Positions 4,203 to 38,646 of a stretch of 64,000 nt of DNA are shown in pieces. Location of the stretch: contig CAYOSQ010000001.1 of the NCBI GenBank assembly GCA_964406665.1, positions 135,412 to 199,411 of the forward strand, written 5' to 3'. The notes beneath the pieces are model-generated. The model made no database searches, was not told the DNA's origin, and saw only the letters and a list, made by a program, of their open reading frames with translations. The DNA is from an uncultured Planctomycetia bacterium. GTDB taxonomy: Bacteria; Omnitrophota; Gorgyraeia; VGKH01; JBHPFN01. The position numbers were made by a program, and so were the translations under genes. The first letter of the stretch is position 1, and each line of letters starts with the position of its first letter.

Positions 4203-6151
4203 AAAAGAGAAAAAAACATATTAATTCGGATCGGCGCAAATATCTAAGACTTAAGAGTGTTTTTCCTGTTGAGTTTAGGATTATGTCAGATAAGGATGAA
4301 CCATGGCAACAGGGGTTTACTTCTGATATAAGCAAAGGAGGTATTTGTCTAAAAGTTAACAACGTAGATGATAAATGGTTTTCTCAGCTTCAAGAAAAAG
4401 GTGTGGATATATCTTTACAGATAAATATTCCTATGTCTGCCGCAGCTACGCGTGCGGTTGCAAAAATTGTCTGGGTTAAGAAGGTCAAAGTAGGTGCTCT
4501 AAATCAATGTTTAATGGGCTTAGAATTTTCAAAGATAGATTCAGGAAATATTAACGGTATTGTACGCTATGGTCGCTGGATGGTGTATTCTGGTAAGGTT
4601 GCCGTAATAGCAATCTTGTTTTTGGCAACTTTAGCAGGTAGCATATTTCTAAATAATCAAAAGATGAGAAAAGAAAATGAAACATTAGTCGAAAAGTTAG
4701 TTGATAGCGCTAAAGAGGAATCAAAAATAAACAAACAGTTAGAAATTTTAACTGAAAGCAATAACGAAGCAGCAGTTCAGATTGAATCTTATTTAAGTAA
4801 AGTATCTAATTTGGAGATTAGAATTAATGAAGTAAAAACGCAAAAAGATAAAGACATGCTTAAGCAATTAGATAGTTTGAAAAAAGAGCTAGCTATCGCT
4901 GAAGAAAAAAAAGAAACCTTAGAGTTAAAATTAGCAGGTTCTAAACAAAGAAAAGAGTTAATTGATAAGGTTTTATTTTCTATAAAGGAGGAAAAGAAAG
5001 ATTTGCGGAAGGCTATGATTGATAAAATGTATAATTGGCTTGTTGTTCATCAAAACCCTCGTACTGGATTAATAATCAGCTATGAGGGGGATAGGCGTCT
5101 TCGGGACTGGGCATTCATTTATGATCAAGCCTTGGCCTCTCAGGCGTATATTCTATTCGGTGATTATGATCATGCTGAGAAGGCGTTCAATTTTTTCTTA
5201 AGACAATCGCATAAACAAGGACAGTTTTCTGGTTTTGCCAATGCCTACTATGCTTCTACAAGTAACGTAGCAGAACATGCTGTACATTGTGGTCCAAATA
5301 TTTGGCTGGGGATATCTTTGCTTCATTATCAGAGAGCAACCTTAGATGCCACGTATCTTCCTTTGGCTAAGAAAATTGCTGACTGGCTTATCAGGATACA
5401 AGAGCAAGATCCTTCTGGAGGTTTACGCGGAGGTCCTTCAGTTAACTGGTTTGCAACTGAGCATAACCTGGATGGCTATGCATTCTTTAACATGTTATTT
5501 GAGATAACAAATGAGGCCAAATACAAAATAGCTAGAGATAAAATCCTAAGCTGGTTGATTACCCATGCTTATGACCGCAAAGAAATTCCGATTAACCGTG
5601 GTAAAGGAGATTCTACCGTAGCAACTGATACATATGCCTGGTCAATTGCAGCTATAGGACCTAAGAAGCTCAAGAGAATAAAGATGGACCCAGATGAAAT
5701 TATGGCGTTTGCAGAAGATAATTGTGGTGTTTTTGTAGAATATGAAAGACCTAACGGAGAAAAGGTTGATGTTGAGGGTTTTGATTTTGCCAAATATCGT
5801 AATATGCCCCGGGGTGGAGTCATCTCTTCCGAGTGGACCGCACAGATGGTATTATCTTTTAAGATAATGCAAGAATATCATTTGAACCAGAATAATTTTG
5901 ATAAAAGTGTTTATTATTCTAAAAAGTATACCCATTTCTTAAATGAACTTGAAAAGCTACTTATTTCATCGTCTTCTCCGACGGGTCAAGGGGAAGGATG
6001 TCTTCCTTACGCAACCGAGGATAATGTAGATACCGGTCATGGGTGGAGAACGCCTCAGGGTCGTACCACTGGTTCGGTCGCCGGAACAACGTATACAATA
6101 TTTGCTCAGAAAGGTTTTAATCCGTTAAAGTTTTCTAAAGATGAAAAGTAG
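4199..6151 (+). CDS. PilZ-domain c-di-GMP receptor fused to TM helix, long coiled coil and a C-terminal alpha/alpha-toroid (glycoside-hydrolase-like) domain
   Basis: N-terminus carries both PilZ signatures, RRKYLR (RxxxR) and DISKGG (DxSxGG). A hydrophobic helix (VAVIAILFLATLAGSIFL) follows, then about 150 aa of heptad-rich coiled coil and a roughly 370 aa Trp/Tyr-rich domain. Start overlaps the upstream gene's stop (ATGA). Confidence 0.75.
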   Translation: MKKRKKHINSDRRKYLRLKSVFPVEFRIMSDKDEPWQQGFTSDISKGGICLKVNNVDDKWFSQLQEKGVDISLQINIPMSAAATRAVAKIVWVKKVKVGALNQCLMGLEFSKIDSGNINGIVRYGRWMVYSGKVAVIAILFLATLAGSIFLNNQKMRKENETLVEKLVDSAKEESKINKQLEILTESNNEAAVQIESYLSKVSNLEIRINEVKTQKDKDMLKQLDSLKKELAIAEEKKETLELKLAGSKQRKELIDKVLFSIKEEKKDLRKAMIDKMYNWLVVHQNPRTGLIISYEGDRRLRDWAFIYDQALASQAYILFGDYDHAEKAFNFFLRQSHKQGQFSGFANAYYASTSNVAEHAVHCGPNIWLGISLLHYQRATLDATYLPLAKKIADWLIRIQEQDPSGGLRGGPSVNWFATEHNLDGYAFFNMLFEITNEAKYKIARDKILSWLITHAYDRKEIPINRGKGDSTVATDTYAWSIAAIGPKKLKRIKMDPDEIMAFAEDNCGVFVEYERPNGEKVDVEGFDFAKYRNMPRGGVISSEWTAQMVLSFKIMQEYHLNQNNFDKSVYYSKKYTHFLNELEKLLISSSSPTGQGEGCLPYATEDNVDTGHGWRTPQGRTTGSVAGTTYTIFAQKGFNPLKFSKDEK

Positions 6152-8972
6152 AATCAGAATATATTATCATTTTCAATTGTTTGGTTTGATCATAGCCGCT
6201 GTTATGTTTTTTTATTCATATGCATATGCTTATAAACAGCCGCATTATATTATTGACGCCACCTTAGATGTTTCCAAGCATGTTCTTCAGGCCAAGGAAA
6301 GGGTAACATTTACCAATAATATTGACAGAGAAATCAAAGAAGTATTCTTTCATATTTATCCCAATCGGAAATTTACTGATAAAGAAAAAGATTTTATGTT
6401 GCGTTACGGTGGATACTTCAAGGTGAATCTATATCCTGAAGGTTTTCAGAGTTCTAGCATGACAATTGATTCTATTAAAGAAAATGGAAAACACCTAGAT
6501 TTTGAGATTATTTCTGAAGATGAAACTATTTTGCGAATTGGCTTACCCCAGTCATTATCTAAGGGGAAGTCGGTTGACTTAGACATAGAGTTTTCAGTGG
6601 TTTTGCCTCATGCATATGGTAGGTTGGGTTGGAATGATAATGTAATTAGTCTTATGCGTTGGTATCCCATTCTTTCGGTTTTAGACGAGGAAGGATGGCA
6701 CAATTATCCTTTTTATCCTTATCATCAGCCATTTTTCTCTGATTCCGCCCGGTATCAAGTAAACTTAACAATTGCCAAAAATTATGTGGTTGCACATACA
6801 GGAAGCGTGCAGGAAGAATTTATAAATTCCGACGAAACAAAAACTATTAAAATAGATTCACAGCTGCCTGTGCGGGATTTTGCTCTTGCCGCCAGTCCTG
6901 ATTTCCGCATATTTTCACTAGAGCATAATGATGTAGAAATAAGATCATACTATTTGCCTGGAGATGATTTCCTTGGAAAAAAAGCAGCTGAGTTTTCTTT
7001 GGCTTTGATGGAATATTATGCTGACCGCTTTATTGATTATCCTTACAAGACATTTTCTATAGCTTCTACCTATCTAGGTTATGGAGGAAATCAATCTTCA
7101 GGAATTATTTTTATCGACACTCGAGTTAACAAACTTCCTAAATTCCTTCTACGATATTTTGATTTTCTTATTTCTCACGAGACAGGGCATCAATGGTTTT
7201 ATAATTTGGTAGGCTCTGATGAATATAAAGAGATGTGGATAGATGAGGGCATCAACTCTTATTTTATTTCAGAGTATTTAGAAGATAAATACGGTCCTGA
7301 TGCCCAAGTTATGATTTTACCTAAATGGCTTCAGCCCTTCGTTCCAAATTTTTCTTTTAAAAGTGGTAGAATCGTACGTTATTTTTACCTGGCTAAAAGA
7401 GGATTAGACAGGCCTATCTTAGGAAAGCTTTCTAGTTTTAAAGAACCAAGCAGCATTTTTGCTTTGGCTTACGGAAAAGGTTCTATTGTAATTGAGATGT
7501 TGCATTCTTTAGTTGGTGAAGAAGCTTTTGCAAGAATAATGAAACAATATTTTAATAAATATACTTTCAAAAATATTTCTGTTTCTGATTTTATCAGGAT
7601 TTGTGAAAAAGAAAGCGGTAAAGACTTAGATTGGTTTTTCGATCAGTGGCTTAATACAGATAAGACGTGCGACTATGCTGTTAATAAAGTAAATAAAAAC
7701 AAAGTTGTTTTAGAAAATCGCGGTGAGATAATTATGCCGGTTAAAACGGAAATTTATTTTTCTGATGGTTCAGTTTTGAAAGATTCTTGGAACGGAGAAG
7801 GAGAAAGTAAGGAAATAGAAATTTTAGAAACTAGTCGTATAGAAAAGATTGTGGTCGATCCTGATAAGGCGATGTTGGATTTAGATAGGACTAATAATTT
7901 TTGGCCACGCTTGTTTGAAACCAAAGCAGTTCCGCTTTACTACGCTGTATACGAAATCCCTGTAGTTTTACCTGAAGATTCATATAGCTTTATTTATGGT
8001 CCGGAATTTATGAAAAATAGTGTAGGTATGCGCGTGAGCTTGCAAAAGCCTTACGATAATAATTTAAGTCTATTTACCGGATATGATCTTAATTCCAGCG
8101 TAATAAAATCAGTACTGGGATTTGAACAGAGAAACTTATTTAATAAACAACTTGCCGGTGGAATTGAATTTTTCAGAGACGAAGATTTAAGTGGTAAAAA
8201 AGAGGATTTAGATGGCGGCAAAATTTATTTGCGACGAGAACTTTGGCCAGCAGCCTATGGATTAACAGAGGTCAACGATCACATTACTTTTTATCTTTTG
8301 CGTAACCGAAAATTTGAAGGAAGTTTTATTGCATCAGGCAGAGAGGATCAGGAAGATATTTCGTATTCTAGAAAAGATGAAGCCATTACAGGAATTGATT
8401 TTAGCTTAGATAGATCCGGACCGTATTTTGATCCCGATTCCGGATACAGAGCTAAAGTTACCTTAGAACATGCAGGACATTTTTTAGGTGGAAAAGAATC
8501 GTTTTCCAGAGGGACAGTTGATTTCACAGGATATCATGGATTTTTGCCAGAGCAAAAACTTGCACTGCATCTTAAGAGCGGATGGGGTTTTCCTTCGGAC
8601 AAAAATCTGTTTGAATTAGGCGGCGACGAAAGTTTAAGAGGGTATGGCCGCAAGGCAATGCGCGGATCCCGTTTTTTCTTAGGAAGCCTGGAATACCGCT
8701 TTCCTTTAATTAGACAAACAAATTTGCGTTTATTAGATAATATAATTTCCATTTCTGCTTTTCAAGGCGTTGCTTTTTTTGACGCTGGTAGAATATGGCA
8801 TGGAGATGTAGAAAAAAGTAATATTAAAAAAGATGCTGGTTTAGGTTTAAGGGTTCATGTTGATATTGGTTCTTATTTAGAGAAGCTTATTTTGCGAATT
8901 GATGTTGCCCAGGCGATTAATGAACCCAAAGAAGACCCGCATGTGTGGTTTGGAATAAGTCACGCATTTTAA
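6141..8972 (+). CDS. Fusion protein: M1-family (gluzincin) metallopeptidase domain plus C-terminal Omp85/D15-type outer-membrane beta-barrel
   Basis: Signal-peptide-like N-terminus. HETGH-X18-E (HETGHQWFYNLVGSDEYKEMWIDEG) is the exact M1 HEXXH-X18-E signature. The C-terminal 300 aa has alternating beta-strand character (LRGYGRKAMRGSRFFLGSLEYRFPL) and ends in ...GISHAF with a terminal Phe, typical of Omp85/BamA-family barrels. Confidence 0.7.
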   Translation: MKSRIRIYYHFQLFGLIIAAVMFFYSYAYAYKQPHYIIDATLDVSKHVLQAKERVTFTNNIDREIKEVFFHIYPNRKFTDKEKDFMLRYGGYFKVNLYPEGFQSSSMTIDSIKENGKHLDFEIISEDETILRIGLPQSLSKGKSVDLDIEFSVVLPHAYGRLGWNDNVISLMRWYPILSVLDEEGWHNYPFYPYHQPFFSDSARYQVNLTIAKNYVVAHTGSVQEEFINSDETKTIKIDSQLPVRDFALAASPDFRIFSLEHNDVEIRSYYLPGDDFLGKKAAEFSLALMEYYADRFIDYPYKTFSIASTYLGYGGNQSSGIIFIDTRVNKLPKFLLRYFDFLISHETGHQWFYNLVGSDEYKEMWIDEGINSYFISEYLEDKYGPDAQVMILPKWLQPFVPNFSFKSGRIVRYFYLAKRGLDRPILGKLSSFKEPSSIFALAYGKGSIVIEMLHSLVGEEAFARIMKQYFNKYTFKNISVSDFIRICEKESGKDLDWFFDQWLNTDKTCDYAVNKVNKNKVVLENRGEIIMPVKTEIYFSDGSVLKDSWNGEGESKEIEILETSRIEKIVVDPDKAMLDLDRTNNFWPRLFETKAVPLYYAVYEIPVVLPEDSYSFIYGPEFMKNSVGMRVSLQKPYDNNLSLFTGYDLNSSVIKSVLGFEQRNLFNKQLAGGIEFFRDEDLSGKKEDLDGGKIYLRRELWPAAYGLTEVNDHITFYLLRNRKFEGSFIASGREDQEDISYSRKDEAITGIDFSLDRSGPYFDPDSGYRAKVTLEHAGHFLGGKESFSRGTVDFTGYHGFLPEQKLALHLKSGWGFPSDKNLFELGGDESLRGYGRKAMRGSRFFLGSLEYRFPLIRQTNLRLLDNIISISAFQGVAFFDAGRIWHGDVEKSNIKKDAGLGLRVHVDIGSYLEKLILRIDVAQAINEPKEDPHVWFGISHAF

Positions 8973-8991: not shown

Positions 8992-9524
8992 ATATGGATG
9001 TTATGGAGGCAATAAAGAAAAGGAAGAGTGTAAGAAGTTATTTAGATAAACCAGTTGATCAGAAGAAGCTAGATCTTATTTTAGAAGCTGCTCGTCTTGC
9101 ACCTTCTGCTGGCAACAGGCAGGAATGGCGTTTAGTAGTGGTCAAAGATAAAGCATTACGCAAGAAGCTTATGGGTGCGGCAAAGGATCAGCCTTTTGTG
9201 GGACAGGCCCCTGTGGTGATTGCTTGTTGTGCCCAGACCGACGGGCATATTATGACCTGCGGGCAGGCGTGTTATCCTATAGATGTAGCTATTGCAATAG
9301 ATCACATGACTTTAAAAGCCTCGGAAGAAGGTTTGGGTACTTGCTGGGTAGGGGCTTTTCATGAGGATGCTGTAAAAGAAGTTTTAGGAATTCCCCGGGA
9401 GATTAAGGTTGTGGAACTTCTAACATTAGGTTATGCTGTTGATGAAACTACAGCAGAGAAGAATAGGCTGCCAATGGATGAAGTTGTTGCATATGATTCC
9501 TGGAAGAAGAAAGACAAACAATGA
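8992..9524 (+). CDS. Nitroreductase family protein
   Basis: KRKSVRSY ... APSAGNRQEWR matches the nitroreductase FMN-binding N-terminus. AGGAGGA RBS sits 9 nt upstream of the ATG at 8992. The ORF track's 8985 start is a non-ATG alternative. Confidence 0.8.
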
Positions 9525-9778
9525 TTAAAACTATCGGATTGTTTGCTTCAGTAATTTTACCCTTATGGAATATTCCTTTGATCTTAAGGGTAATCAAAAG
9601 ACGTTCGTCTGCTGATATCAGTCTTTGGTGGGCTAACGGAGTATGGATATGCCTTGTTTTATTATTGCCGTCAGGGATCACTTCTGAAGATATCGTGTGG
9701 AAGACATTTACAATCGCTAATTTTATTTTGTTTAGTGCAGTTATTGCAGTAGTTTGGGCTTATCATAAAAAGACATGA
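9521..9778 (+). CDS. SemiSWEET-like PQ-loop sugar transporter (3-TM, 85 aa)
   Basis: 85 aa with three predicted TM helices. IPLILRVIKRRSSADIS resembles the PQ-loop/TM1-loop of bacterial SemiSWEETs of the same length. Translationally coupled to both neighbours. Confidence 0.5.
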   Translation: MIKTIGLFASVILPLWNIPLILRVIKRRSSADISLWWANGVWICLVLLLPSGITSEDIVWKTFTIANFILFSAVIAVVWAYHKKT

Positions 9779-10710
9779 AAGAAAAAGAATCCAAGAAAAA
9801 TAATGATTTTCGCTGTGGCTTTGTTGCCGTTGTGGGTAGGCCTAATTCTGGAAAGTCTACGCTGATTAATAAGATTTTAGGTAAGAAAATTGCCATTGTT
9901 ACCAGAGTGCCTCAAACAACCCGTAATGCTATACGCGCAATATACAATAGTAAAAATGCTCAAATAATATTTGTAGATACTCCGGGCATGCATGCGCCTA
10001 AAGATAGGCTGGGAAAATTAATGAACAGAACCGGCCAACAGACAGCGAATGACGCAGATGTTATATTACATTTGATGGATACATCCAAAGCTCCGGGAAA
10101 AGAAGAAGAGGTAATCGTCAAAGAGCTGGATAAGAAAAACAAACCAATTATCCTAGGCCTTAATAAAGTAGATTTGGAAGGAAAATATATTCAAGAATAT
10201 ATTGAATTATGGCAACGCATAACAGGCAAAGACATTAATAAATTAGGTAGTGAAATAATGCTAATGCCTTTATCTGGATTGACCGGAATACACATAAAAG
10301 AATTAATTGATGCTATAATTGATTTTCTACCAGAATCAGTTGCTTTGTATCCGCAAGATGCTGTTTCAGATTTTCCTGAGAGGCTTTTTATGGCTGAGAT
10401 TGTTCGAGAAAAGCTGTTTAATCTTTTAAGAGAAGAGATTCCTTTTGGCCTTAGCGTTAGCGTGGAAGAAGTGGAGGAGAGAAAGAAAAATATACTTGCT
10501 GTTTACATGGCGATAGTAGTTAGTAGGGAATCTCAGAAAAAGATTGTAATCGGGAAGAGAGGAAGCATATTAAAGAAGGCAGGGACGCAGGCTCGAAAAG
10601 AGCTTGAAAAGACGCTCAAGAGAAAAATATATTTAGAGCTTTATGTAAAGATTCGCAGGGACTGGAGAGAAAATACTCAAATATTACAAGAGTTAGGAGT
10701 TATTGATTGA
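9775..10710 (+). CDS. era: GTPase Era
   Basis: GFVAVVGRPNSGKSTLIN P-loop, DTPG, NKVD and a C-terminal KH domain. 311 aa. Confidence 0.9.
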   Translation: MKEKESKKNNDFRCGFVAVVGRPNSGKSTLINKILGKKIAIVTRVPQTTRNAIRAIYNSKNAQIIFVDTPGMHAPKDRLGKLMNRTGQQTANDADVILHLMDTSKAPGKEEEVIVKELDKKNKPIILGLNKVDLEGKYIQEYIELWQRITGKDINKLGSEIMLMPLSGLTGIHIKELIDAIIDFLPESVALYPQDAVSDFPERLFMAEIVREKLFNLLREEIPFGLSVSVEEVEERKKNILAVYMAIVVSRESQKKIVIGKRGSILKKAGTQARKELEKTLKRKIYLELYVKIRRDWRENTQILQELGVID

Positions 10711-10752: not shown

Positions 10753-13149
10753 TTATTCTCCAGCTGTATAAAGCCCAGCGGGATGATGTGAAAAATTATA
10801 GTCGTTATCTACCAAACGAATTGTTATGCTAGCAAAATACCCAGGAAGTTCTCCGGGAGGTAATACATCTGGAGTGTAACGTGTTTCGTATTGGAATATA
10901 TTGTTTGATGAACTCGGACCATGAGAAGTCATGTCCCACGGCCAGCCCGCAAGTCCTTCGCTTCTGCAGGGTGATCCGGGAAAAGCAGAAGTAAATTCTG
11001 GGTTAGTACATTTTCTGGATTTGTTCCAATCAAAGATAGGCCAGCTAGAACCCTCGTCAAATTCTTTCCATTCAAAGTTGTTGTTTTCCAGATTAATAAA
11101 AGAACCAACTACTTTCCTGGTATATCCTGATTCTCCCCATCTTTCTAGCACTGCAGGTGGGTATGCTCTATAGCCGACAATAGAAACATAGTATTCAACA
11201 ATACCATTGTCATCTTCTCCGGCAACAGGAGCCATCTCGTCTTCATATAGCATTTCCCAATGGCCTTCATGCCAATCTTCATCTTCTACATAAGGATAAT
11301 CTGGATTATGAATTGTGTAAGGCAGCCCTCCTTCTGTAATTCCTGCGATACGTTCCATTTCATCAAGAAAACTTTCAGATACCGTAAAAGCCCTTTTTGC
11401 AGCGATTATTGCTGAAGGCTGCCAGTCATGACCTGCTTCTCCAACGTTATAATCACCCATGAGATAGATATTTTCTCTGGAAACTGTTGTTAGCGGCGCT
11501 AGTAGTGAGCGAGCCTTTGCTAGTGCTAGGTCGTAATCAGAATAAACAACACCATTTTGTGGCCAGATTCCATCAGTCTTCATTCTGTAAACATCTAGAG
11601 AGATAATATTTTCTTTTAATTGCCAGCTGTTGGTGTCGTGAAAAGAACGGTTGCGAGCTATCGTTTTGCCGCTGACGGGGCTTACATAGTCTCCATCAGG
11701 CTCAGGGCATATTAATAGTGGTTCAGGTTGTCCTTCTATATGAACTTGTATAGCAATTTCTTTGCTACATTCTTCAAAATTATTTATATACATACCCTCT
11801 GACTGAGCTTGGTTGAAATAAGTTGCTGAGTTAATTCGCGGAGGAGTAATGTGTTCAGCACCGGTATTGTGTTCAAGTATAACACCATCTAAAGAAGTGG
11901 GCATCCAGTCTTGCCAAGCACCAAGCTGCTCATAAGTGTTCGTAAAGTTAGCAGGTATATCTACAGGACTAACTGGATTAGGGTAGTAGTAACGAGTACC
12001 GCCCCACCAAAGGCCACCGCTTGTTCTCCAGAAGAGATCCCAGTCATAACTAGAACTAAGCCTTGTCGGGATTCTTTCTTCTGGCTGCCCGTTGGCGTTA
12101 ATCCTTACAGAGCGGTGGTACCGTTCTCCCGGAGCAGCATCTCCATAAATATAGTAATCACTATACATGTAAAGATCTTCGTTAATTAAATTTGGGTCAT
12201 GTCCTGTGGCAAGCTCACAGTTTCCTTCAGGAAGAATACAGTTAGCAAAGTCGCCTTCACAAGTTGCATATAGCTCGTTGCCAGGGCCAGCAGGGAGCTC
12301 ACCATTAAATGCGGGATTATCCATAAATAGTCCACTTCTTTCGCCGTAGACTTTTCCATCATGATGATGATAGTAGTCGTATTCCTCACCATTTAAATTC
12401 TGTGGGTCCCACCAGGGGTCACGCATCCAGTAGAGTATGTCATTCCAAGAAGGAGCATCGCCAATGACGTTACCATATTGATCATATGCTACATCTTCAG
12501 GAGGCATATAGGCATATGTGTTGTAGCTGATATATTGAGCAGCTTCTAATGTATTGATATTTTGAATAACTACACTATCAGCAAATTTTAGATTTCCGTT
12601 TGTGTGAATACTACCGCCTTCAGCTAAAAAAGTTGTCCAACCCATATACATACTGTAAGGACTAAACCAAAAGTATTCATACAGAGTGCTGATTGATACT
12701 TTAGCAGCCATGAGGTATGAGTTATCGGTTGTATCGCTTACGCCTCTGGCTAGAATAGCGAACTGTCCGTCTCCTTCATCTAGGTAGACTTTGGTAAAGA
12801 ATTTATCGTTTAAGGCTTTGTATTCTCCTGTTCCACCATCATGTTCTGCAATTGTGTCTAAAAAAACATGTAGAGGAGTACCGTAATCATATAAGAAAGT
12901 AGGGTCGGTATCCTCGGGGTCGAAGTAATGCGTTTTCCAGCTTGTGCCGTGATTTATTAGTTCGTAGTAGGCACACTCGAATCCTTTTTCAGCATTATAC
13001 TTTGCGCTAAGATCGCCGTAATTTTCACGAGCAATCAAATCTTCATTAATACTTTTTGCAAAGATAGCAGCAGAGAGAATTGTAAGCACTATAATAGTTG
13101 CAAAAGAACCAACGAGTAAGAAACCACATTTATTTCTTAGTCTTATCAT
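10753..13149 (-). CDS. Large secreted PilX-N-like (non-canonical pseudopilin-type N-terminus) putative pilus tip or adhesin protein, copy 2
   Basis: N-terminal MIRLRNKCGFLLVGSFATIIVLTILSAAIF resembles the PilX_N or GspK-type hydrophobic anchor. The roughly 770-aa body is rich in Trp/Tyr/Asp. It is paralogous (about 35% identity, shared blocks such as HTNGNLKF and GDYNVGE) to the ORF at 14815..17115. Confidence 0.55.
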   Translation of the reverse strand: MIRLRNKCGFLLVGSFATIIVLTILSAAIFAKSINEDLIARENYGDLSAKYNAEKGFECAYYELINHGTSWKTHYFDPEDTDPTFLYDYGTPLHVFLDTIAEHDGGTGEYKALNDKFFTKVYLDEGDGQFAILARGVSDTTDNSYLMAAKVSISTLYEYFWFSPYSMYMGWTTFLAEGGSIHTNGNLKFADSVVIQNINTLEAAQYISYNTYAYMPPEDVAYDQYGNVIGDAPSWNDILYWMRDPWWDPQNLNGEEYDYYHHHDGKVYGERSGLFMDNPAFNGELPAGPGNELYATCEGDFANCILPEGNCELATGHDPNLINEDLYMYSDYYIYGDAAPGERYHRSVRINANGQPEERIPTRLSSSYDWDLFWRTSGGLWWGGTRYYYPNPVSPVDIPANFTNTYEQLGAWQDWMPTSLDGVILEHNTGAEHITPPRINSATYFNQAQSEGMYINNFEECSKEIAIQVHIEGQPEPLLICPEPDGDYVSPVSGKTIARNRSFHDTNSWQLKENIISLDVYRMKTDGIWPQNGVVYSDYDLALAKARSLLAPLTTVSRENIYLMGDYNVGEAGHDWQPSAIIAAKRAFTVSESFLDEMERIAGITEGGLPYTIHNPDYPYVEDEDWHEGHWEMLYEDEMAPVAGEDDNGIVEYYVSIVGYRAYPPAVLERWGESGYTRKVVGSFINLENNNFEWKEFDEGSSWPIFDWNKSRKCTNPEFTSAFPGSPCRSEGLAGWPWDMTSHGPSSSNNIFQYETRYTPDVLPPGELPGYFASITIRLVDNDYNFSHHPAGLYTAGE

Positions 13150-13185
13150 GATAATTACCTCTTTAGCTGTCTAGGAAAACACCAG

Positions 13186-14775
13186 CTAGTTTCTTAAAGT
13201 AACAGAGCTTGTAATAGAAAATTCAAAAGGACCTGACATCATAGAATCTTTTGATGCTTCAATGATTATATTGACAGAGTCCGGATTGCTATCTTTAGGA
13301 TTTCCGCTTTCATCAAAACCTTGGAAATCAACCCGTATTATATTATCTGCGACAACCGAGAATGTATAGTTGTCTATGCTTCCCATATCTTCGGCAAAAA
13401 CTAAATTCGAGAAGAATTTTTTTATAGCACAAAATGGAGGACAGCCTCCTGGGTCTCGACCCTGTGCTGGCAGATCTTTATTATGCACCAGATATCCATT
13501 AGCAAAGTAGTTGTGATATGGGTTTACTTCAATGTTGTAAACTATTATCTTTTCATCAACAGCTTCTATGCTGGTAATTGTTTCTTCTTTTCCTTCCTGG
13601 GTAAGAAGAATATCACCTTGTTTTAGCTTACCTGCTCTAACCCATGCACCATTAGCGAAGAAAGGATGTTCTGTTGTTACTTTGATGCCATCATTGATTA
13701 TCAGATACCCTTGGACCTCATGCATGAATACTTCTTTTACTGTGTCTCCTAGCTTAGTTCGAGAATTTTCACTATAAGAGGTTACTTTATCTCCTGTAAC
13801 TATATTTTCAATAAACTTGTTAGTGCCATCAGCCATAAGAATAGAAGTGCCGGGTAAGAGACAGCCTTTATTATGAGCTAATATGTTATCAGCATAATAT
13901 GTATGATAAGGGTTAACCTCAAGGTTGTATACCAACACAGGTTCTTCGATCCTTTCTATGCTGGTGATTGTTTCTTTAGAGCCGTTTACCTTGGTTAACT
14001 CATCACCTATATTAAGCAAGCCGATATCTACCCATCTACCTTTATGAAATACTGGGTGGTTAGGTGTTGCCTTGATGCGACCATTGATTAAAAGATAGTT
14101 ATCTTCTTCATGAATAAATGTTTCCACTACCTTATCAGACTTATTTTTACCAGATTCCTGATCATAGGCTAATACAGTGTCTCCTACTTTAATTGCTTCA
14201 ATATCTTTAGTTGAACCATCAGCTAAAAGAATAGGGGTACCTGCGAGAAAACAAGGATCGCATTCACCGCAGTCTAATTCACAAGTATTACAGTCTTCTC
14301 CAATCTCTGGTTCGCAGCCTTTGATGCCACAATGGTTAGTTGCTATTAAGCGCATAAGTCTTCCAGCGTTCGCGGAAGAAAAATTACTATGGGGTACTAA
14401 ATATACAACTTCTTCATTAAGAATACCATCAGCGCCCCATTTAATTTCTCCATAGGGATCTTCTTTATAATATGTGCCCGTGATAGGATCGTCAGTAATC
14501 TGCGGTGTCTGTAATTTTATAAGATGTCCGATACAGGTATTAACGTGTTCTCCGGTACACTCTTCAATAAAAACATGACCGGAATCTGATTGTTCTAGCT
14601 CTTTGACCATGCGTTCCATTGAGTAGCGGGCCTTCTGTTGTAGGTCAACCATTGAAGAACTTCTAATCCAGGTATTTCTTCCTATTATAATAGTACCGAT
14701 AACAATACCAAGTATAAATATTGCTATAACAACAGTTGCCATAGTTTCAGAAAGGGTAAATGCTTTTCTGTTCAT
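13186..14775 (-). CDS. Prepilin-type N-terminal domain protein with Cys-rich repeats and two tandem Hint (bacterial intein-like, BIL) domains, copy 2
   Basis: N-terminus MNRKAFTLSETMATVVIAIFILGIV is a type IV pilin-like leader plus hydrophobic helix, with Ala at -1 and a conserved Glu+5. A Cys-rich EGF-like segment (CGIKGCEPEIGEDCNTCELDCGECDPC) follows. Two Hint modules each have an N-terminal Cys (CFLAGTPIL, CLLPGTSIL), a TxxH block (TPNHPVF, TEHPFF) and a terminal HN (LAHN, LVHN), then Lys rather than a nucleophile. Confidence 0.7.
   Translation of the reverse strand: MNRKAFTLSETMATVVIAIFILGIVIGTIIIGRNTWIRSSSMVDLQQKARYSMERMVKELEQSDSGHVFIEECTGEHVNTCIGHLIKLQTPQITDDPITGTYYKEDPYGEIKWGADGILNEEVVYLVPHSNFSSANAGRLMRLIATNHCGIKGCEPEIGEDCNTCELDCGECDPCFLAGTPILLADGSTKDIEAIKVGDTVLAYDQESGKNKSDKVVETFIHEEDNYLLINGRIKATPNHPVFHKGRWVDIGLLNIGDELTKVNGSKETITSIERIEEPVLVYNLEVNPYHTYYADNILAHNKGCLLPGTSILMADGTNKFIENIVTGDKVTSYSENSRTKLGDTVKEVFMHEVQGYLIINDGIKVTTEHPFFANGAWVRAGKLKQGDILLTQEGKEETITSIEAVDEKIIVYNIEVNPYHNYFANGYLVHNKDLPAQGRDPGGCPPFCAIKKFFSNLVFAEDMGSIDNYTFSVVADNIIRVDFQGFDESGNPKDSNPDSVNIIIEASKDSMMSGPFEFSITSSVTLRN
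13468..13868. repeat. About 400 bp direct repeat, roughly 95% identical to 17436..17836 (Hint-domain cassette shared by the two pilin-BIL genes)
   Basis: Direct sequence comparison shows long identical runs, e.g. gcagatctttattatgcaccagatatccattagcaaagtag. Antisense ORFs at 13568..13777 and 17536..17730 translate almost identically. Confidence 0.8.
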
Positions 14776-14814
14776 TCCTTGTCCCCCCTTGTTAGTTTAT
14801 ATGATATCACAGTA

Positions 14815-17115
14815 TTAATAATATTTAACATAATAATAATTGAATTCAGAGAGAGGTATTTCCATGTAGATTTGTTCGGTGAAACCAACATAATCTTCTG
14901 GAGGATACTCGCCTGTTTCATTGTATGATTTATCATATTTGAATTCGTTATTTGCAGCATAAGGACCAATGGCACCCATTGAACTTGGCCAGCCAGGGTT
15001 TGTGCGTTCTGGTCTGGCGACAGTGTTATCATATTGGCCTGGATTTCCAAAATCTTCTTCACTGATTCTTATCTTGGAACCAAGGACAGTTCTTTTACGC
15101 TGCGTCCAATTGCTAGGAGTGTTATTTAAATCTCCCACATCTTGATAAAAGCTCCAGTTTTCTAAAACCTTGGGTTCATAAGCACGGTGACCGATAGCAG
15201 AAATATTATAGGTATAGTCTTTATCTACATTATTGGCAACTGTTCCGTCATATATCGGCAGAGTTAACGGAGGAGGTTTTTCCAGCTCTTGGCATACCTC
15301 TTCTTTTGGATCGCAAGGCGGAGGATAGGCCTCTGGGTTATCTTTTAAATTAGCCATCCAGTTGTATCTATCACCAGGGTCTGCTGTTAAATCCCAGTTA
15401 GGTTCATAGGGATATTCAATATGAAATCTGGTTATTGGTAGAGCACTAGGATAGTTAAACACATCAGATAAAGTATATAAATCCATTGCACAGATTGCTG
15501 CAGAAGGTTGTTTATCAGTTGCGAGATCACCAATGTTATAATCTCCTTTTAAATGCAAGTTTTTCTCAGTTATCCAGGTAACCCCACCTTCTGGTAAAAC
15601 TTCGGCATTATCAACAACTATATTAGCTTCGGAATAGATTAATCCGTTTCCAGGAGAATTTCCGGATGCAAGCAGTTCGGAAAAATTAAATTCTGTTACG
15701 ATGTTTTCTTGCATGCTGTGAGTGTTTATAAAAGTTTTAATTTCTGCCACAAGGTGTCCGCCTATCCATACTTCTCCTGAGGCATCAGATGGATATGAAA
15801 CGCGCGCAATCTGTACGCTGATTTCAGTTCCGTCTTCGTTTGACCCGATATATATACCTGCATCTTGAGCTGCATCTGCATAGTTTGAAGCGGCTACTGA
15901 CAAGGGTTCAATGTATTCTGCTCCAGAAGAGTAATCTTTTATAACTCCGGCTAGATTTGGTTCTGAAGCTGTATAATCAGATAGAGCTTGGGCTTGTGAA
16001 GCAAAAGAAGTGTTTAGCCATTTAACTGTTATTTCTGATTCTGGGAATCCCCAGGCTTCAGTAATGCTCCAGTATTTGTTTATGGTGTATGGTGCCTCTA
16101 ACCTGTTGGGAAGTCTGGTTTCGTTAATCCAGGCAATCCTGTCATCGTCAGCATAGTTTTCTGGGGCTTCATCAGGAAGGGGAGGATCTGGGTCAATATC
16201 AGGATCCCAGATTGCCTGAGCGGCATTGCGAATATTATACTTATCTCCATACACATGTCCATAAGATCTATTTTCGTATGAATACTCTGAAAACATTCCT
16301 CCTGAATATGTTTCTAAAGATTCTCCGGAATCTGGCTCGTAATTTGCTGAAGTCCAAGGTGCATGATTATATTTATAGTAGCTTCTCCAGGTTTCATGTG
16401 GGCAGTCTGTACATCCGGGAGTTTCATCCATGAAGTCATCGATGAATTCATAGGGAAGCCATGACTTGGCATAATATTGAATATAATCTTTTGCAGAAAA
16501 TTCACTAACATTAAAAATTTCAACGGAGTTCTGAAATATGAAGCTTCCATTAGTATGCATCCTTCCACCGTCAGCAAGCCATGTTCTACTACTTAAATAA
16601 TATGTTGAAGGAGAAAACAAAAAATAATCATAAAGAGATTGTGAGATAGTTTTAGACATAAATATTCTTTCAGTGCCTTGATTTTCACTTAGTCCTTTGG
16701 AATATATAAAATAGTCATCACTTGAAGGGCTTTTAAAAACTTTTACAGCAAAGTCTAGCCCTAACCCAGATCCTTTAGAAATATAGCATCCGTAGGTAGG
16801 ACTTTCTGGATCTTCATCTATCGCGGTTAATCCAGATAGCGTTACCGTTGGAACAGTGCCTGTGGGAACAAGCAGGCCATCTGCCTTTACCGTATGAGTA
16901 ACCCAATTGAGACTATGTGAAATTTCATATCTTGCCAAATTCAATCCGGCATCTGCAGCACACTTAGATTCTATATTACTTTGTTGCCTGCGTATGTTTA
17001 AGTTGTCGTTTGCTATTCTAAAAAAGAATGCTGTGGCCAATACAGAAAGTGCTGTAACAACAATGTAAGTGCCAATGAGTACAAAACCCTTTTTGTTAAG
17101 TATTTTTACGTTCAT
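14815..17115 (-). CDS. Large secreted PilX-N-like putative pilus tip or adhesin protein, copy 1
   Basis: N-terminal MNVKILNKKGFVLIGTYIVVTALSVLATAFFF (PilX_N-like). 766 aa and paralogous to 10753..13149. Follows the pilin-BIL gene by 27 nt on the same strand. Confidence 0.55.
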   Translation of the reverse strand: MNVKILNKKGFVLIGTYIVVTALSVLATAFFFRIANDNLNIRRQQSNIESKCAADAGLNLARYEISHSLNWVTHTVKADGLLVPTGTVPTVTLSGLTAIDEDPESPTYGCYISKGSGLGLDFAVKVFKSPSSDDYFIYSKGLSENQGTERIFMSKTISQSLYDYFLFSPSTYYLSSRTWLADGGRMHTNGSFIFQNSVEIFNVSEFSAKDYIQYYAKSWLPYEFIDDFMDETPGCTDCPHETWRSYYKYNHAPWTSANYEPDSGESLETYSGGMFSEYSYENRSYGHVYGDKYNIRNAAQAIWDPDIDPDPPLPDEAPENYADDDRIAWINETRLPNRLEAPYTINKYWSITEAWGFPESEITVKWLNTSFASQAQALSDYTASEPNLAGVIKDYSSGAEYIEPLSVAASNYADAAQDAGIYIGSNEDGTEISVQIARVSYPSDASGEVWIGGHLVAEIKTFINTHSMQENIVTEFNFSELLASGNSPGNGLIYSEANIVVDNAEVLPEGGVTWITEKNLHLKGDYNIGDLATDKQPSAAICAMDLYTLSDVFNYPSALPITRFHIEYPYEPNWDLTADPGDRYNWMANLKDNPEAYPPPCDPKEEVCQELEKPPPLTLPIYDGTVANNVDKDYTYNISAIGHRAYEPKVLENWSFYQDVGDLNNTPSNWTQRKRTVLGSKIRISEEDFGNPGQYDNTVARPERTNPGWPSSMGAIGPYAANNEFKYDKSYNETGEYPPEDYVGFTEQIYMEIPLSEFNYYYVKYY

Positions 17116-17141
17116 TTTACCCCTCGCTTTTAGATGGCAAT

Positions 17142-18419
17142 TTATTCATTTACATTTACTGCTGAATGTAATGTTACCTCTAGCTCTCTACCGAGTAGAA
17201 ATATATTCTTTTTAGCCAAAATAGTTATTTTTATTACTTCCGGATTTGCTGCATCCGGTATTGCTGTAAATGTTATCCTATCTATATTTTGAGTGAGAAC
17301 ACGTTCTCCATAAAGCATGTCCGCATATGCGCATGGTGTTAAAAATATTGATCTAAAGAATTTATTAAGCGATGTCCAATCACCACAGTCTGGTGGGCAA
17401 TCGCCACCCCGGAGTTCCATCTGATAGTGCATCGCGGGCAGATCTTTATTATGCACCAGATATCCATTAGCAAAGTAGTTATGATATGGGTTTACTTCAA
17501 TGTTGTAAACTATTATCTTCTCATCAACAGCTTCTATGCTGGTAATTGTTTCTTCTTTTTCTTCCTGGGTAAGAAGAATATCACCTTGTTTTAGCTTACC
17601 TGCTTTAACCCATGCACCATTAGCGAAGAAAGGATGTTCTGCTGTTGTTTTGATATTATCATTGATTATCAGATATCCTTGGACCTCATGCATGAATACT
17701 TCCTTTACTATATCTTCCAGCTTAACTTGAGAGTCTTCATCATAAGAGGTTACTTTATCTCCTGTAACTATATCTTCAATAAATTTGTTAGTGCCATCAG
17801 CCATAAGAATAGAGGTGCCTGGCAAGAGACAGCCGGGATGGCAGGGACCGCAATCTGTTGAACAGGTACTGCAGGTTTCTCCTAGCTCTGGCTCACATAT
17901 TTCATTGCCGCAATGAGCAGGATTACATTCTCCGCAGTCTGGAATGCATTCATCGCAAATTTCGTAAGGGGTTTCGCATACCTCGTTTCCACAAACTGGA
18001 TCGATTGGTTGTTTTCTTACTAAACTGCCTTGATTTTCTCCTTGAGCCGGAACATAGTAGTAACCAAATTCATCAGGCCATCCATCAATACCCCATTTGA
18101 TTTGACCGGATTCATCATAATATGTTCCTGCTACTGGATCGTTGGTTATAATCGGGGCCTGAAATTCAATTACATCTCCTACACATTCAGTTTCTATGCA
18201 TCCAGTAACTGTGATGTGATCTGCATCTAGAGATTTTAATTCGTTTACAATTCTATCCATTGCAAACCGTGTAGATTGTGTCAGATCAGCATATGCAGAA
18301 TTAGTTAAGAATGTATCGCGACCAACTACAAGGGTTGAGGTAATCATTAAACCAATACCAACACAAATCGCCGTTACAACTAATCCTTCAAAAAGTGTGA
18401 AAGCTTTTCTATTCATCAC
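17142..18419 (-). CDS. Prepilin-type N-terminal domain protein with Cys-rich repeats and one Hint (BIL) domain, copy 1
   Basis: N-terminus MMNRKAFTLFEGLVVTAICVGIGLM (prepilin-like). Long Cys-rich stretch (CGNEVCETPYEICDECIPDCGECNPAHCGNEICEPELGETCSTCSTDCGPCHPGC). Hint domain CLLPGTSILMADG...TAEHPFF...LVHNKD. AGGAGG RBS upstream. First gene downstream of the riboswitch. Confidence 0.7.
   Translation of the reverse strand: MMNRKAFTLFEGLVVTAICVGIGLMITSTLVVGRDTFLTNSAYADLTQSTRFAMDRIVNELKSLDADHITVTGCIETECVGDVIEFQAPIITNDPVAGTYYDESGQIKWGIDGWPDEFGYYYVPAQGENQGSLVRKQPIDPVCGNEVCETPYEICDECIPDCGECNPAHCGNEICEPELGETCSTCSTDCGPCHPGCLLPGTSILMADGTNKFIEDIVTGDKVTSYDEDSQVKLEDIVKEVFMHEVQGYLIINDNIKTTAEHPFFANGAWVKAGKLKQGDILLTQEEKEETITSIEAVDEKIIVYNIEVNPYHNYFANGYLVHNKDLPAMHYQMELRGGDCPPDCGDWTSLNKFFRSIFLTPCAYADMLYGERVLTQNIDRITFTAIPDAANPEVIKITILAKKNIFLLGRELEVTLHSAVNVNE
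17436..17836. repeat. About 400 bp direct repeat, roughly 95% identical to 13468..13868
   Basis: See the paired repeat entry. Covers the Hint domain of copy 1. Confidence 0.8.
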
Positions 18420-18439
18420 AACCTCCTTTTAAATATCAT

Positions 18440-18572
18440 CTTAAGATTAAAAAACCCATCCAACTATAATGGATGGGCTCAATGCCACATTTCTTGTTGG
18501 CAACCCGGCTATCCTTTTACAAGGATCCTTGGTTTTGTGCCCCACCCTTACAGATGGTTTACCCTTTTTCAA
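18440..18572 (-). promoter_or_regulatory. c-di-GMP-I (GEMM) riboswitch aptamer plus intrinsic-terminator expression platform in the 5' leader of the pilin-BIL/PilX-like operon
   Basis: Minus-strand RNA reads GGGUAAACCAUCUGUAAGGGUGGGGCACAAAACCAAGGAUCCUUGUAAAAGGAUAGCCGGGUUGCC. The Vc2 GEMM consensus is GGCAAACCAUUCGAAAGAGUGGGACGCAAAGCC...AGCGGGGUUACC; the GNRA tetraloop, the GGGxCxCAAAxCC core and the AGCCGGGUUxCC 3' element are conserved. Immediately 3' is GAGCCCAUCC-AUUAUAGUU-GGAUGGG-UUUUUU (7-bp GC-rich stem plus U6) about 20 nt before the RBS and start codon. Confidence 0.8.
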
Positions 18573-18601
18573 CAAGCTATTTTACTATATCTTGTAGTCA
18601 A

Positions 18602-18629
18602 AGTATAGCATAAAAGCCAGTTTTTTCAA
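18602..18629 (-). promoter_or_regulatory. Sigma70-like promoter (TTGAAA-N16-TATACT) driving the riboswitch-led operon
   Basis: Minus strand reads CTTGAAAAAACTGGCTTTTATGCTATACTTTGAC. The -35 is TTGAAA, the spacer is 16 nt and the -10 is TATACT. The predicted TSS is about 25 nt upstream of the aptamer. Confidence 0.4.
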
Positions 18630-30099: not shown

Positions 30100-33000
30100 A
30101 TGTCTGAAAAAGACAAAAAAATTAGTCCTTCAAAAAACCGAACTGTGAATCGGTCTGCCCAGAACGATTCAAGCTTACCTAAGAAACTCTCCAATTGTAA
30201 AAAGATAGAACAGGCATACCTAGAAACAGAATTACATTGCTCCAATGCACTTAATTCTTTATTTGATTCAATTCTTATTGTTGATAGAGAGTTAAAAATC
30301 ACTTTAATTAATGACGCCTTTAAAGAATGGAATAAAAAACTTGGTTTGTCAGATAACATGGTGGGTAAATACCTTTTTGAAGTATTCCCGTTTTTGCCGA
30401 ATAAGGTTAAACAGGAATATGATCAAGTCATTCAAAAAAGGGAATCTCTAATAACCGAGGAACACGTAAATGTTTTAGGAAGAAACTTGATAACAGAGGC
30501 TAGAAAGATTCCAGTTTTAAGAAACGGTGAGACAGTTCAAATAATTACCATGATTAGGGATATTACTGAGCGTAAAAAAATAGAAGAGAGAATAACTAAG
30601 ATAAACAAATGCTTTCTTGATTTTAGCTCGAACGCTGATGAGAATATAAATAAATTAGTTGCTCTTTGCGGAAAAATAATGGGAGGAAAATGTTCTGTTT
30701 ATAATAGGCTAGAAGGAGGATTGCTTTGCTCAGTGGGGAAATGGAACACCCCTAAGGATTATAATTCTATTAGTAATCCTGAGGGACATATTTGTTATGA
30801 TGTTATCAAGCGCGGCAGTGGAAAGTTCTGGATAGTACGCAATTTACCTCAGTCACGTTATGGGCAATCAGACCCAAATGTAAAAAGTTTCGGACTGCAG
30901 ACTTATATAGGTATTTCTGTTTCTTTCAACGGAAAGTGCGTAAGCGCACTATGTGTTGTATATCAAGAGGATGTTGTTATAGATAATGACGATAAGAAAT
31001 TTATGCAGCTGATTGCTTCTGCCATTGCTTCAGAAGAGAAGCGTAAAGAATCAGAAAAGGCTTTGTTGACCAGCAAGGAAAAATACAAGACCTTAACTCA
31101 TAATGTTAACATAGGCATATACAGGAATACAGCTGGTTCTCATGGTAAGTTTATTGAGGCGAATCCTGCGGTCATAAAAATGTTTGGATATAAAAACAGG
31201 CGTGATTTTTTGATTCGAAATGTCTGCGATTTGTACCAAAATAAGGCAGATCGAGAAAAGTTTAGCAGGAAGTTATTGGAAAAGGGATTTGTCAAGAATG
31301 AAGAATTACGCCTTAAGAAAAAAGACGGAAAGGCTTTTCTTGCATCTGTATCTGCCGTTGCTATAAAAGATGATAATGGCGAGATCAAATATTATGATGG
31401 AATAGTTGAAGATATAACCGAGAGAAAACAATCTGAAGTTAAATTGCGTAAATCAGAAGAAAAATACAGATTTCTTTTTGAAAAAAGTGCGATTCTTGCC
31501 ATAGTTGTCGGTGAGGATAAAAAGATCAAAGATGTAAATAAGTGGACTTGGGAAACTTTAGGATATGCAAGAAATGAAATAATTGGAAAAACAGCTTTAG
31601 ATTTCGTTGTTCCTGAAGAAAGAGAAAGAGCGCGAGAGGAATTAAAAAAATCATTTAACGATGAAATATCCTCCGGTGTTGGAATTAACGTACTTGCCAA
31701 AGATGGCAGTACGCATACGATTCTTTTTTCTCCCGGACAGGTTTTACTGCAGGAAAAAGGTAAGATTTCCAGCATACTTCTAACAGGTTTAGACATTACT
31801 GATCGTAAAATATCTGAAAAAAATCAGCTTGATATGACATCACATTTGCGCGCCGTGGTAGCTGCAACCGATGAACTTATTAATTGTTCGAATCTTGAAG
31901 TTGTTTACCGCTGGGCAGTAGAATTTGCCAGAAATAAGCTAGGACTAGAGAGATGCGCGATATTTTTGGAAGAAGGAGGTTATGTTCAAGGTATTTATGG
32001 AACTGATAAAAATGGTAATACAACAGACGAACATACGAATCGTTTTTTAAAGAATGAATCCTGGAAACAGCGTTTTAGGATGCTTCATCCTCAAGACCCA
32101 AGTTGGGTGGTAGTTAAGGAGCCGCAGCTAGAATGGGATGGAGATAAAACTGTTCAAATAGGAGAAGGTTGGATTGTAATAACGCCTATTCAATCTACCC
32201 AACGTCCTATAGGCGTGTTGGTTAATGATACAGCCATAAGCGGTTGTGTATTAGATCCTATGAAGCAAGATACCTTGGCTGTGTTTTGTTCTCTCTTGGG
32301 AAACATTATTGAGCGTAAACGTGCAGAAAATAAATTAGAGATAGTTAACAAAAAACTACTTCAGTCAAACAGAAGGTTGAAACAGCTTGCTTTAAGGGAT
32401 TCTCATACTGGATTATATAATCATAGATATTTGGAAGAAGCAATCAATTCTGAATTCGACCGCGCAAAACGCTATGCCTATTCTCTTTCTGTAATTATGC
32501 TCGACATTGATTATTTTAAATCCATAAATGATGTTTATGGCCATCAGTTTGGTGACCTTATATTAAAACAGTTTTCCCGTCAACTTAAGCGTCTGGTACG
32601 TAAATATGATACTGTTATTCGTTTTGGTGGAGAAGAGTTTATTATTCTTTCCCCGGGTATTGATAGATTTACAGCCATGATTTTAGCCCGTCGACTCTTA
32701 AATGTTGTTAATTTATGCAATTTCGGCAATCAGGAAAATAGTATAAAGTTAAAATTAAGTTTGTCTATTTCTTCCTATCCTGAAGATAATGCTTCTAAAG
32801 GAATGGATTTGATTAATCTGGTTGATCAGATTTTAAACAGGGCAAAAGAAGATGGAGGAGATCGGGTTTATTCTTCCCAGGAGATGGGTAAAGAAAAAGA
32901 TCCGGTATTAAACAAGGTGGAAAGAAGTACCGATATTAATTTCCTTCAGGAAAAAATAGATAAGCTTACCAGAAGGGCGAACCAGAGTTTGATAGAAGCA

Positions 33001-38424: not shown

Positions 38425-38535
38425 TCCGCAGTTTGCGGAGAGGCAAACCATTTGTAAGAGTGGGACGCAAAGCCACGGGTCTCACAATTAATAATTAATT
38501 GTGTTTATTTGAGGCGGCCGGGTTGCCGAAAGGTA
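38425..38535 (+). promoter_or_regulatory. c-di-GMP-I (GEMM) riboswitch in the 5' leader of the 2900-aa giant protein gene
   Basis: RNA reads ...CUCCGCAGUUUGCGGAGAGGCAAACCAUUUGUAAGAGUGGGACGCAAAGCCACGGGUCUCAC...GAGGCGGCCGGGUUGCCGAAAGG. Its 5' half matches the V. cholerae Vc2 aptamer GGCAAACCAUUCGAAAGAGUGGGACGCAAAGCC at 30 of 33 positions, and the 3' half conserves GGCCGGGUUGCCGA. The putative translation start is about 110 nt downstream. Confidence 0.8.
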
Positions 38536-38646
38536 AAAAATGGATACCTTTATGTAGCCCAGTCGTTTTTTTATTGAAAATTTCAAAAGGAGAGCTAAAT
38601 AAGCTATAAAAATACATAAAACTCTGAAAGGGTCAGGGGGCAAGTA

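Follow-up and report, generated by a model that had tools for sequence, protein, structure and literature searches.

A class-I c-di-GMP riboswitch with a putative P2-derived antiterminator upstream of a pilin-like/Hint operon in Omnitrophota

A leader RNA ahead of genes for pilin-like and Hint-domain proteins in an uncultured marine Omnitrophota bacterium raises two questions: which ligand it binds, and whether binding turns the genes on or off. We analyzed the whole 64,000-nucleotide stretch of DNA containing this leader (hereafter, the window), in which a sequence-only reading had proposed a GEMM (c-di-GMP-I) riboswitch with a terminator expression platform on the minus strand. That reading gave no ON or OFF direction. 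Our analysis confirms the observation of the aptamer, partly supports the interpretation placed on it, and describes a leader anatomy that, as read from the sequence, points to an OFF switch.

Results

A class-I c-di-GMP aptamer on the minus strand

A cmscan search of the entire window with Rfam 15, using gathering thresholds, gave two matches, both to RF01051 (c-di-GMP-I). The match in the leader, at 18573..18496 on the minus strand, spans the full model (positions 1-87 of 87) at 61.5 bits, well above the gathering score of 35 (E 1.3e-9), and the strings previously quoted as the aptamer core, GGGUAAACC-AUCU-GUAA-GGGUGGGGCACAAAACC and GGAUAGCCGGGUUGCC, are present on that strand. All sequence-testable defining features of RF01051 are found in this segment, setting aside a tetraloop receptor that the family does not require. 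Alignment to the model places the Vc2 ligand contacts G20, A47, and C92 at window positions 18563, 18536, and 18500, and the interhelical pair C44-G83 at 18539 and 18509 (for the roles of these residues, see PMC4744006); the AAA linker joining both hairpins is also there (CAC-AAA-ACC). An AAA linker and a GNRA-type tetraloop on the first hairpin have been described for GEMM RNAs (PMC1950547), and the P2 tetraloop here, GUAA, is a GYRA loop of the GNRA type.

The RNA therefore resembles the type example of RF01051, Vc2 from Vibrio cholerae, in its three helices, G20/A47/C92, C44-G83, AAA linker, and GNRA-type P2 loop. Unlike Vc2, which combines a GAAA loop with a receptor, it has a GUAA loop and a P3 without the 11-nt tetraloop receptor, the receptor columns (CUAAG...UAUG) being gaps in the model alignment. 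The sequence-only reading had tied its proposal to a P2 GNRA loop paired with a receptor in P3; the loop is present and the receptor is not, but GEMM RNAs with GYRA loops normally have no receptor (PMC1950547), and its absence is therefore no count against membership. Judged from sequence and model alignment, minus-strand 18576..18493, which includes the P1 helix lying outside the Rfam model, is a canonical c-di-GMP riboswitch aptamer of class I and belongs to the subtype with a GYRA loop and no receptor (Weinberg 2007, PMC1950547; Table 1).

The helices are borne out by comparison of four related copies, namely the window copy, those of two orthologous loci (L007 and L013), and a second copy in the window: standard pairs fill 92% of pair cells and seven pairs are changed on both sides, compared with 35-49% paired when, as a control, the structure is slid by 1-3 columns. 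P1 covaries too, becoming ACGUUG/CAACGU in L013 and CUUUGUUG/CAACAAAG in a further locus, L008.

A GEMM-I fold might instead bind 3'3'-cGAMP (GEMM-Ib) or belong to the GGC or UAU variant classes. In E-value-mode clan competition, RF03167 (c-di-GMP-I-GGC) does appear at 52.9 bits with an E equal to that of RF01051, but this falls short of its own gathering score (59), and where the GGC class is defined by a G replacing A47, this RNA has an A, for which reasons the GGC identity was rejected. Position 20 is a G, unlike the A that is reportedly typical of cGAMP-selective GEMM-Ib, and GGDEF, HD-GYP, and PilZ proteins are encoded nearby. Because G20, A47, and C92 are all present and RF03167 scores below threshold, we regard a different ligand as very improbable, and c-di-GMP is the ligand predicted from the sequence.

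Table 1. Positions of the leader elements, the operon genes, and other c-di-GMP-related features in the window, with the leaders of orthologous operons
Feature	Position	Strand	Description
Promoter-like site, sigma-70-like	18629..18602	-	TTGAAA, 16-nt spacer, TGcTATACT (extended -10)
P1 5' strand	18576..18570	-	CUUGUUG, read from sequence
P2	18557..18542	-	GUAA loop 18551..18548
J2/3	18541..18535	-	
P3	18534..18502	-	
P1 3' strand	18499..18493	-	CAACAAG, pairs with CUUGUUG
Linker	18492..18481	-	AAAUGUGGCAUU, 12 nt, between P1 and terminator
Putative antiterminator, upstream strand	18553..18535	-	CUGUAAGGGUGGGGCACAA; end of P2 5' strand, GUAA loop, P2 3' strand, J2/3
Putative antiterminator, downstream strand	18482..18464	-	UUGAGCCCAUCCAUUAUAG; terminator 5' arm and loop
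Predicted intrinsic terminator	18480..18449	-	GAGCCCAUCCA, loop UUAUAGU, UGGAUGGGUUU; -16.7 kcal/mol; U6
RBS	18427..18422	-	AGGAGG, 21 nt 3' of U tract
Gene 1, 424 aa	17142..18416	-	Pilin-like N-terminus (KAFTLFE then hydrophobic helix), Cys-rich repeats, one Hint domain (residues 195-325)
Gene 2, 766 aa	14815..17115	-	Pilin-like N-terminus KKGFVLIG
Gene 3, 529 aa	13186..14775	-	Paralogue of gene 1, two tandem Hint domains
Gene 4, 798 aa	10753..13149	-	Paralogue of gene 2 (29% identity), last in presumed operon
Second c-di-GMP-I riboswitch	38432..38530	+	RF01051, 66.1 bits
ORF, 2900 aa	38647..47349	+	Downstream of second riboswitch
1143-aa protein	30100..33531	+	PAS-GAF-PAS-GGDEF-HD-GYP
650-aa protein	4199..6151	+	N-terminal PilZ domain
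L007/L010 leader			SAG AM-311-J20 (GCA_042571725.1); RF01051, 50.5 bits
L013 leader			Annotated Candidatus Omnitrophica; RF01051, 60.7 bits
L008/L012 leader			RF01051, 31.8 bits, below gathering score; 41-nt insertion in P2

Leader anatomy and its conservation in orthologous loci

Three further Omnitrophota loci have the orthologous operon behind this aptamer-terminator arrangement, and all four leaders are flanked by a shared divergent PAC2-family gene on one side and by the first pilin-Hint gene on the other. The comparative set was built by scanning genome and metagenome contigs under the guidance of the 766-aa partner protein (five loci) and adding database protein searches and contig look-ups, for a total of four independent leaders; L015 and L016, truncated by the end of their contigs, and two loci without a riboswitch (L014 and L017) were left out. 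The operon is rare, with orthologues in only a handful of contigs in these protein searches and contig scans. Each of the four leaders comprises an aptamer, a P1 with covarying pairs, an unconserved linker, and a terminator hairpin. Transcription is predicted to start near 18595 on the minus strand, and the motif TTGAAA...TG(C/T)TATACT is kept at the same distance in L007 and L013, with L008 retaining the -10 only.

Downstream of the aptamer, an intrinsic-terminator expression platform had been proposed upstream of the first pilin-Hint gene, and this is supported by a hairpin with U6 and by the Hint match of that gene (PF07591, 2.8e-19). The hairpin (18480..18452) is GC-rich and is followed by U6 (18454..18449) as described, but its stem has up to 11 pairs and not the 7 bp first given; the distance of about 20 nt to the AGGAGG RBS agrees with the 21 nt counted from the U tract. 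A terminator consensus scan of the 1.2-kb region returned three terminator-like sites where shuffled sequence would give 0.6. All four orthologous leaders share the terminator core CCCAU...GAUGGG (CCCAUC in three, CCCAUU in L008), and the U tract of L007 is interrupted (UUUCUU). The start codon is likely the ATG at 18416, spaced 5 nt from AGGAGG, over the GTG at 18419, and the gene called on public contigs gives the same 424-aa product.

One part of the earlier interpretation fails on coordinates. The P1 3' strand was said to overlap the terminator 5' arm, but the 12-nt linker separates CAACAAG from the terminator, and a switching geometry in which P1 and the terminator share a strand was accordingly rejected. 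This linker is unconserved in comparison with L007, L008, and L013, is the least conserved part of the leader, and can pair weakly either upstream (GCCAACA/UGUGGC) or downstream (AUGUGGC/GCCCAU).

Some orthologous leaders carry additional elements. In the orthologous aptamer of L008 (4793..4913; the same in L012), the GNRA tetraloop of P2 gives way to a GC-rich insertion of 41 nt, which explains the aptamer's sub-threshold score, such that standard annotation would miss this aptamer. L013 (3725..3795) and L008 (4707..4795, equal to L012 3661..3749) have an extra conserved domain of about 65-90 nt, absent from the window, that separates the P1 5' strand from the aptamer core. It opens with a duplicate of the aptamer 5' end (AAAAGGGUAAGCC / AAAAGGGCAAACC) and includes two hairpins; L013 has UUCUAACG twice, and CGUUAGAAG is able to pair with one or the other. 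This domain might serve as a decoy in the form of a half-aptamer, or it might add a second layer of regulation.

A putative antiterminator formed with P2 and J2/3

With P1 set apart from the terminator, we searched everything upstream in each leader for the segment that pairs best with the terminator 5' arm. That segment is alike in the window, L007, and L013, and consists of the GUAA loop, the P2 3' strand, and J2/3. In the window, 18553..18535 pairs with 18482..18464 at -18.5 kcal/mol (5'-CUGUAA-GGGU-GGGG-CAA-3' with 5'-UUG-A-GCCC-AUCC-A-UUAUAG-3'), and the duplex energies of the window, L007, and L013 (-18.5, -21.2, and -22.7 kcal/mol) were equalled by 16, 5, and 26, respectively, of 2000 shuffles of the downstream segment. 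Complementarity between aptamer and terminator is weak and non-significant in L008/L012 (287/2000 shuffles), making it significant in three of the only four independent leaders compared. The GGG of P2 is universally conserved and accounts for part of the complementarity, some of which could therefore be incidental. We also considered, and rejected, an alternative in which the P3 3' strand (GGAUAGCCGGGUU) pairs with the 5' arm of the terminator; this pairing is present but weaker (-10.5 versus -14.3 to -18.5 kcal/mol).

The two strands differ between leaders in ways that keep them paired. The P2 3' strand of L013 reads AGAUGG in place of GGGUGG and is matched by AUCUU in place of AUCC in the terminator arm, and L013 gains an extra UUUGUG pairing opposite CACAAA of J2/3. 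If the terminator core must match the aptamer, then a kept core beside an unconserved linker is the expected pattern, and the terminator loop AUUAUAG would be common to the window and L007 because it is part of the antiterminator duplex.

Predicted folds depend on how far transcription has proceeded. For a transcript ending just before the terminator 3' arm, the MFE fold carries the antiterminator, with an ensemble probability of ~1, in the window, L007, and L013; in the window this fold lies at -38.2 kcal/mol, compared with -31.4 kcal/mol when the aptamer is enforced. At full length, the unconstrained minimum is the terminator with P2 intact (-45.7 versus -38.2 to -42.9 kcal/mol), and the terminator is likewise the best fold when the aptamer is enforced. 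The antiterminated state lies 3-10 kcal/mol above the terminated one, and leaving it for the terminated state by a direct path would cost an estimated 10-13 kcal/mol, a barrier that a kinetic trap could account for. Because the full-length minimum is the terminator even without ligand, read-through would depend wholly on kinetics, and these calculations suggest a switch that is kinetic in nature.

Direction of the switch

We consider it rather probable that the leader is an OFF switch, by which a rise in c-di-GMP would shut off transcription of the pilin-like/Hint operon at the termination step. In the absence of c-di-GMP, UUGAGCCCAUCCAUUAUAG, the newly transcribed loop and 5' arm of the terminator, would invade the aptamer, beginning at the unpaired J2/3 and then displacing the P2 5' strand, to give a 17-pair bulged antiterminator with CUGUAAGGGUGGGGCACAA that lets RNA polymerase read through. 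When c-di-GMP is bound, J2/3 (including A47) and P2 would be locked in the folded aptamer and deny the invading arm its toehold, leaving the 5' arm free to pair with its own 3' arm, so that transcription would stop before the RBS. Besides the full-length minimum, the small number of leaders, and the conserved GGG noted above, two considerations count against this model. P2 is a local hairpin that forms first, and would have to be opened by strand invasion. Furthermore, pili are commonly induced by c-di-GMP, and turning off a pilus-like operon at high c-di-GMP runs counter to this pattern.

Induction by c-di-GMP would suit the common biology, and an ON switch can be drawn through the linker: without ligand, GCCAACA from the P1 3' strand and C92 region would pair with UGUGGC of the linker and the terminator would form, whereas with ligand P1 would form and the freed AUGUGGC would pair with GCCCAU of the terminator 5' arm as an antiterminator. 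The first pairing is indeed seen in the unconstrained fold and the second when the aptamer is enforced, and L007 has analogous options (GC(C)AAC/GUUGC and GUUGC/GCAAC). However, the linker-terminator hairpin has just six pairs and a bulge, leaving CCA of the 5' arm as a toehold, and the terminator remains the best full-length fold with the aptamer enforced. The equivalent hairpin in L007 covers only the three outermost terminator pairs, the U-rich linker of L013 offers no such pairings, and the linker is the very part of the leader that is least conserved. We downgraded this ON arrangement because it is weak, still allows the terminator to form with the aptamer enforced, and is absent from L013, and we hold it to be unlikely.

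It is similarly doubtful that a genuine aptamer is followed by a hairpin and U tract acting as a ligand-independent attenuator or pause site, with control exerted elsewhere (RNA stability, translation, or Rho). Such an element would fit a terminator that is the thermodynamic minimum with or without the aptamer, as well as the interrupted U tract of L007, but an independent terminator would not be expected to have an arm whose conservation is matched to the P2 3' strand and J2/3. As for translation, none of the predicted folds of the leader convincingly sequesters the RBS, which lies 21 nt downstream.

The OFF direction that we favor has precedent in Clostridioides difficile, where class-I c-di-GMP riboswitches are known as transcriptional OFF switches (PMC11477304). 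Like Cd1 in the flgB leader of that species, the window leader has a class-I aptamer followed by an intrinsic terminator, and the prediction is that c-di-GMP favors termination in an operon for a surface appendage (PMC11477304). It differs from Cd1 in that its direction is deduced from sequence, in an antiterminator that would use J2/3 together with the loop and 3' strand of P2 and not the 3' side of P1 or P3, and in a cargo of pilin-like/Hint proteins in place of flagellar genes.

A second riboswitch with apparently opposite logic

The other RF01051 match in the window has a terminator of its own, in which GCGGCCGGGUUGC pairs with GUAGCCCAGUCGU (38514..38566, U7 to 38572, -24.7 kcal/mol). Here, the 3' strand of the aptamer's P3 doubles as the 5' arm of the terminator, an arrangement from which an ON switch is predicted. 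This is exactly the layout found in 78 of 322 GEMM RNAs, in which the right-hand hairpin shares its 3' part with the terminator (Weinberg 2007, PMC1950547), unlike the riboswitch at 18573..18496, where the terminator is a separate hairpin 12 nt beyond P1. From their sequences, the two window riboswitches appear to have opposite logic, one OFF and one ON. The 2900-aa ORF downstream of the second copy has no Pfam or NCBIfam match, and the GGDEF/HD-GYP and PilZ proteins encoded in the window (Table 1) indicate that c-di-GMP signaling is present.

The tip of P3 in the second riboswitch (window 38485..38501) is made by a 17-nt AT-rich palindrome, CAATTAATAATTAATTG, which recurs as a hairpin in the P1-terminator linker of the pilin-Hint leader of L008 (4919..4935) and L012 (3873..3889); it was found nowhere else in the window or the other loci compared.

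Operon cargo and relation to known c-di-GMP regulons

Downstream of the probable OFF-type leader lies a presumed four-gene operon (18416..10753, minus strand) with intergenic gaps of 26-39 nt, in which two pilin-like proteins bearing Hint domains alternate with two larger partners. The N-terminus of the gene 1 product is pilin-like by sequence and a pilin fold is putative: AlphaFold2 with a six-row alignment gave a mean pLDDT of 52.7 for the 424-aa protein, with the Hint domain alone confident, and NCBIfam minor-pilin and pseudopilin hits are sub-threshold and occur in the L013 orthologue only. The operon contains no pilus assembly genes. In the family alignment, Cys1, T-x-x-H, and the terminal HN of the Hint domain are invariant, and HN is usually followed by Lys or Gly, so that self-cleavage would be expected and not canonical splicing. 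No Pfam or NCBIfam family matches gene 2, and database homologues of the gene 2 and gene 4 proteins come from Candidatus Omnitrophota only, as do all named homologues. The identical 424-aa protein is encoded on a marine metagenome contig (JGI 3300009008 Ga0115649_1000312, 128 kb) and on several others.

The Hint domains vary in number, with one, two, or three per pilin-like protein (window 17142..18416 and 13186..14775, minus strand; L007 4615..6603 and 8993..10186), and are inserted between a Cys-rich linker and a conserved C-terminal domain of ~100 aa; an orthologue from another Omnitrophota genome (L015 2507..3511, 334 aa) has none at all. The gene 2 and gene 4 proteins (~770-800 aa) have pilin-like N-termini without Glu5 (GFVLIG, GFLLVG) and no known domain, and each protein of this type is always paired with a pilin-Hint gene. 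The Hint-bearing pilin-like proteins may be the most unusual thing in the locus, and we came across no publication that connects pilins with bacterial intein-like domains in this way.

GEMM RNAs have been associated with pilus genes before, including Geobacter pili assembly genes and pilM/O/Q, cpaA, and pulF (Weinberg 2007 Table 2, PMC1950547), and a type IV pilus operon of C. difficile is under a class-II riboswitch (PMC11477304). The present operon is like these in placing type-IV-pilus-like or secretion-related genes under a c-di-GMP riboswitch, and unlike them in that its pilin-like proteins are interrupted by one or two Hint domains and accompanied by partners of ~770 aa without a known family. 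The riboswitch class is long known and the window copy itself is routine annotation; the cargo is less ordinary. What goes beyond routine annotation is the host phylum, the cargo, the antiterminator from the P2 3' strand and J2/3, and the apparent OFF/ON pair. A literature search joining Omnitrophota and riboswitch found no paper describing such a riboswitch in this phylum.

Taken jointly, these features tentatively suggest a two-riboswitch c-di-GMP lifestyle switch in an ultra-small Omnitrophota bacterium, a composite that we put forward as possible rather than probable. An OFF-type riboswitch, whose terminator helix copies P2 and which works by P2-terminator strand exchange seeded at the ligand pocket in J2/3, would silence a lineage-specific operon of pilin-like proteins that autoprocess via embedded Hint domains, and a sibling ON-type riboswitch 20 kb away would induce a 2900-aa surface protein. 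The predicted consequence is that the operon and the 2900-aa ORF respond to c-di-GMP in opposite directions. The operon is otherwise unannotatable and the ORF has no known domain, and their indication as c-di-GMP outputs in Omnitrophota offers a functional handle on an uncultured lineage. The expression platform also provides a compact, testable case of an antiterminator built from a ligand-pocket strand (P2 3' strand and J2/3) and not from P1.

Elsewhere in the window, a 943-aa protein (6141..8972, plus strand) combines a Peptidase_M1 domain with a C-terminal Omp85 domain, and orthologues sharing both domains lie near the pilin-Hint operon in L008 and L015.
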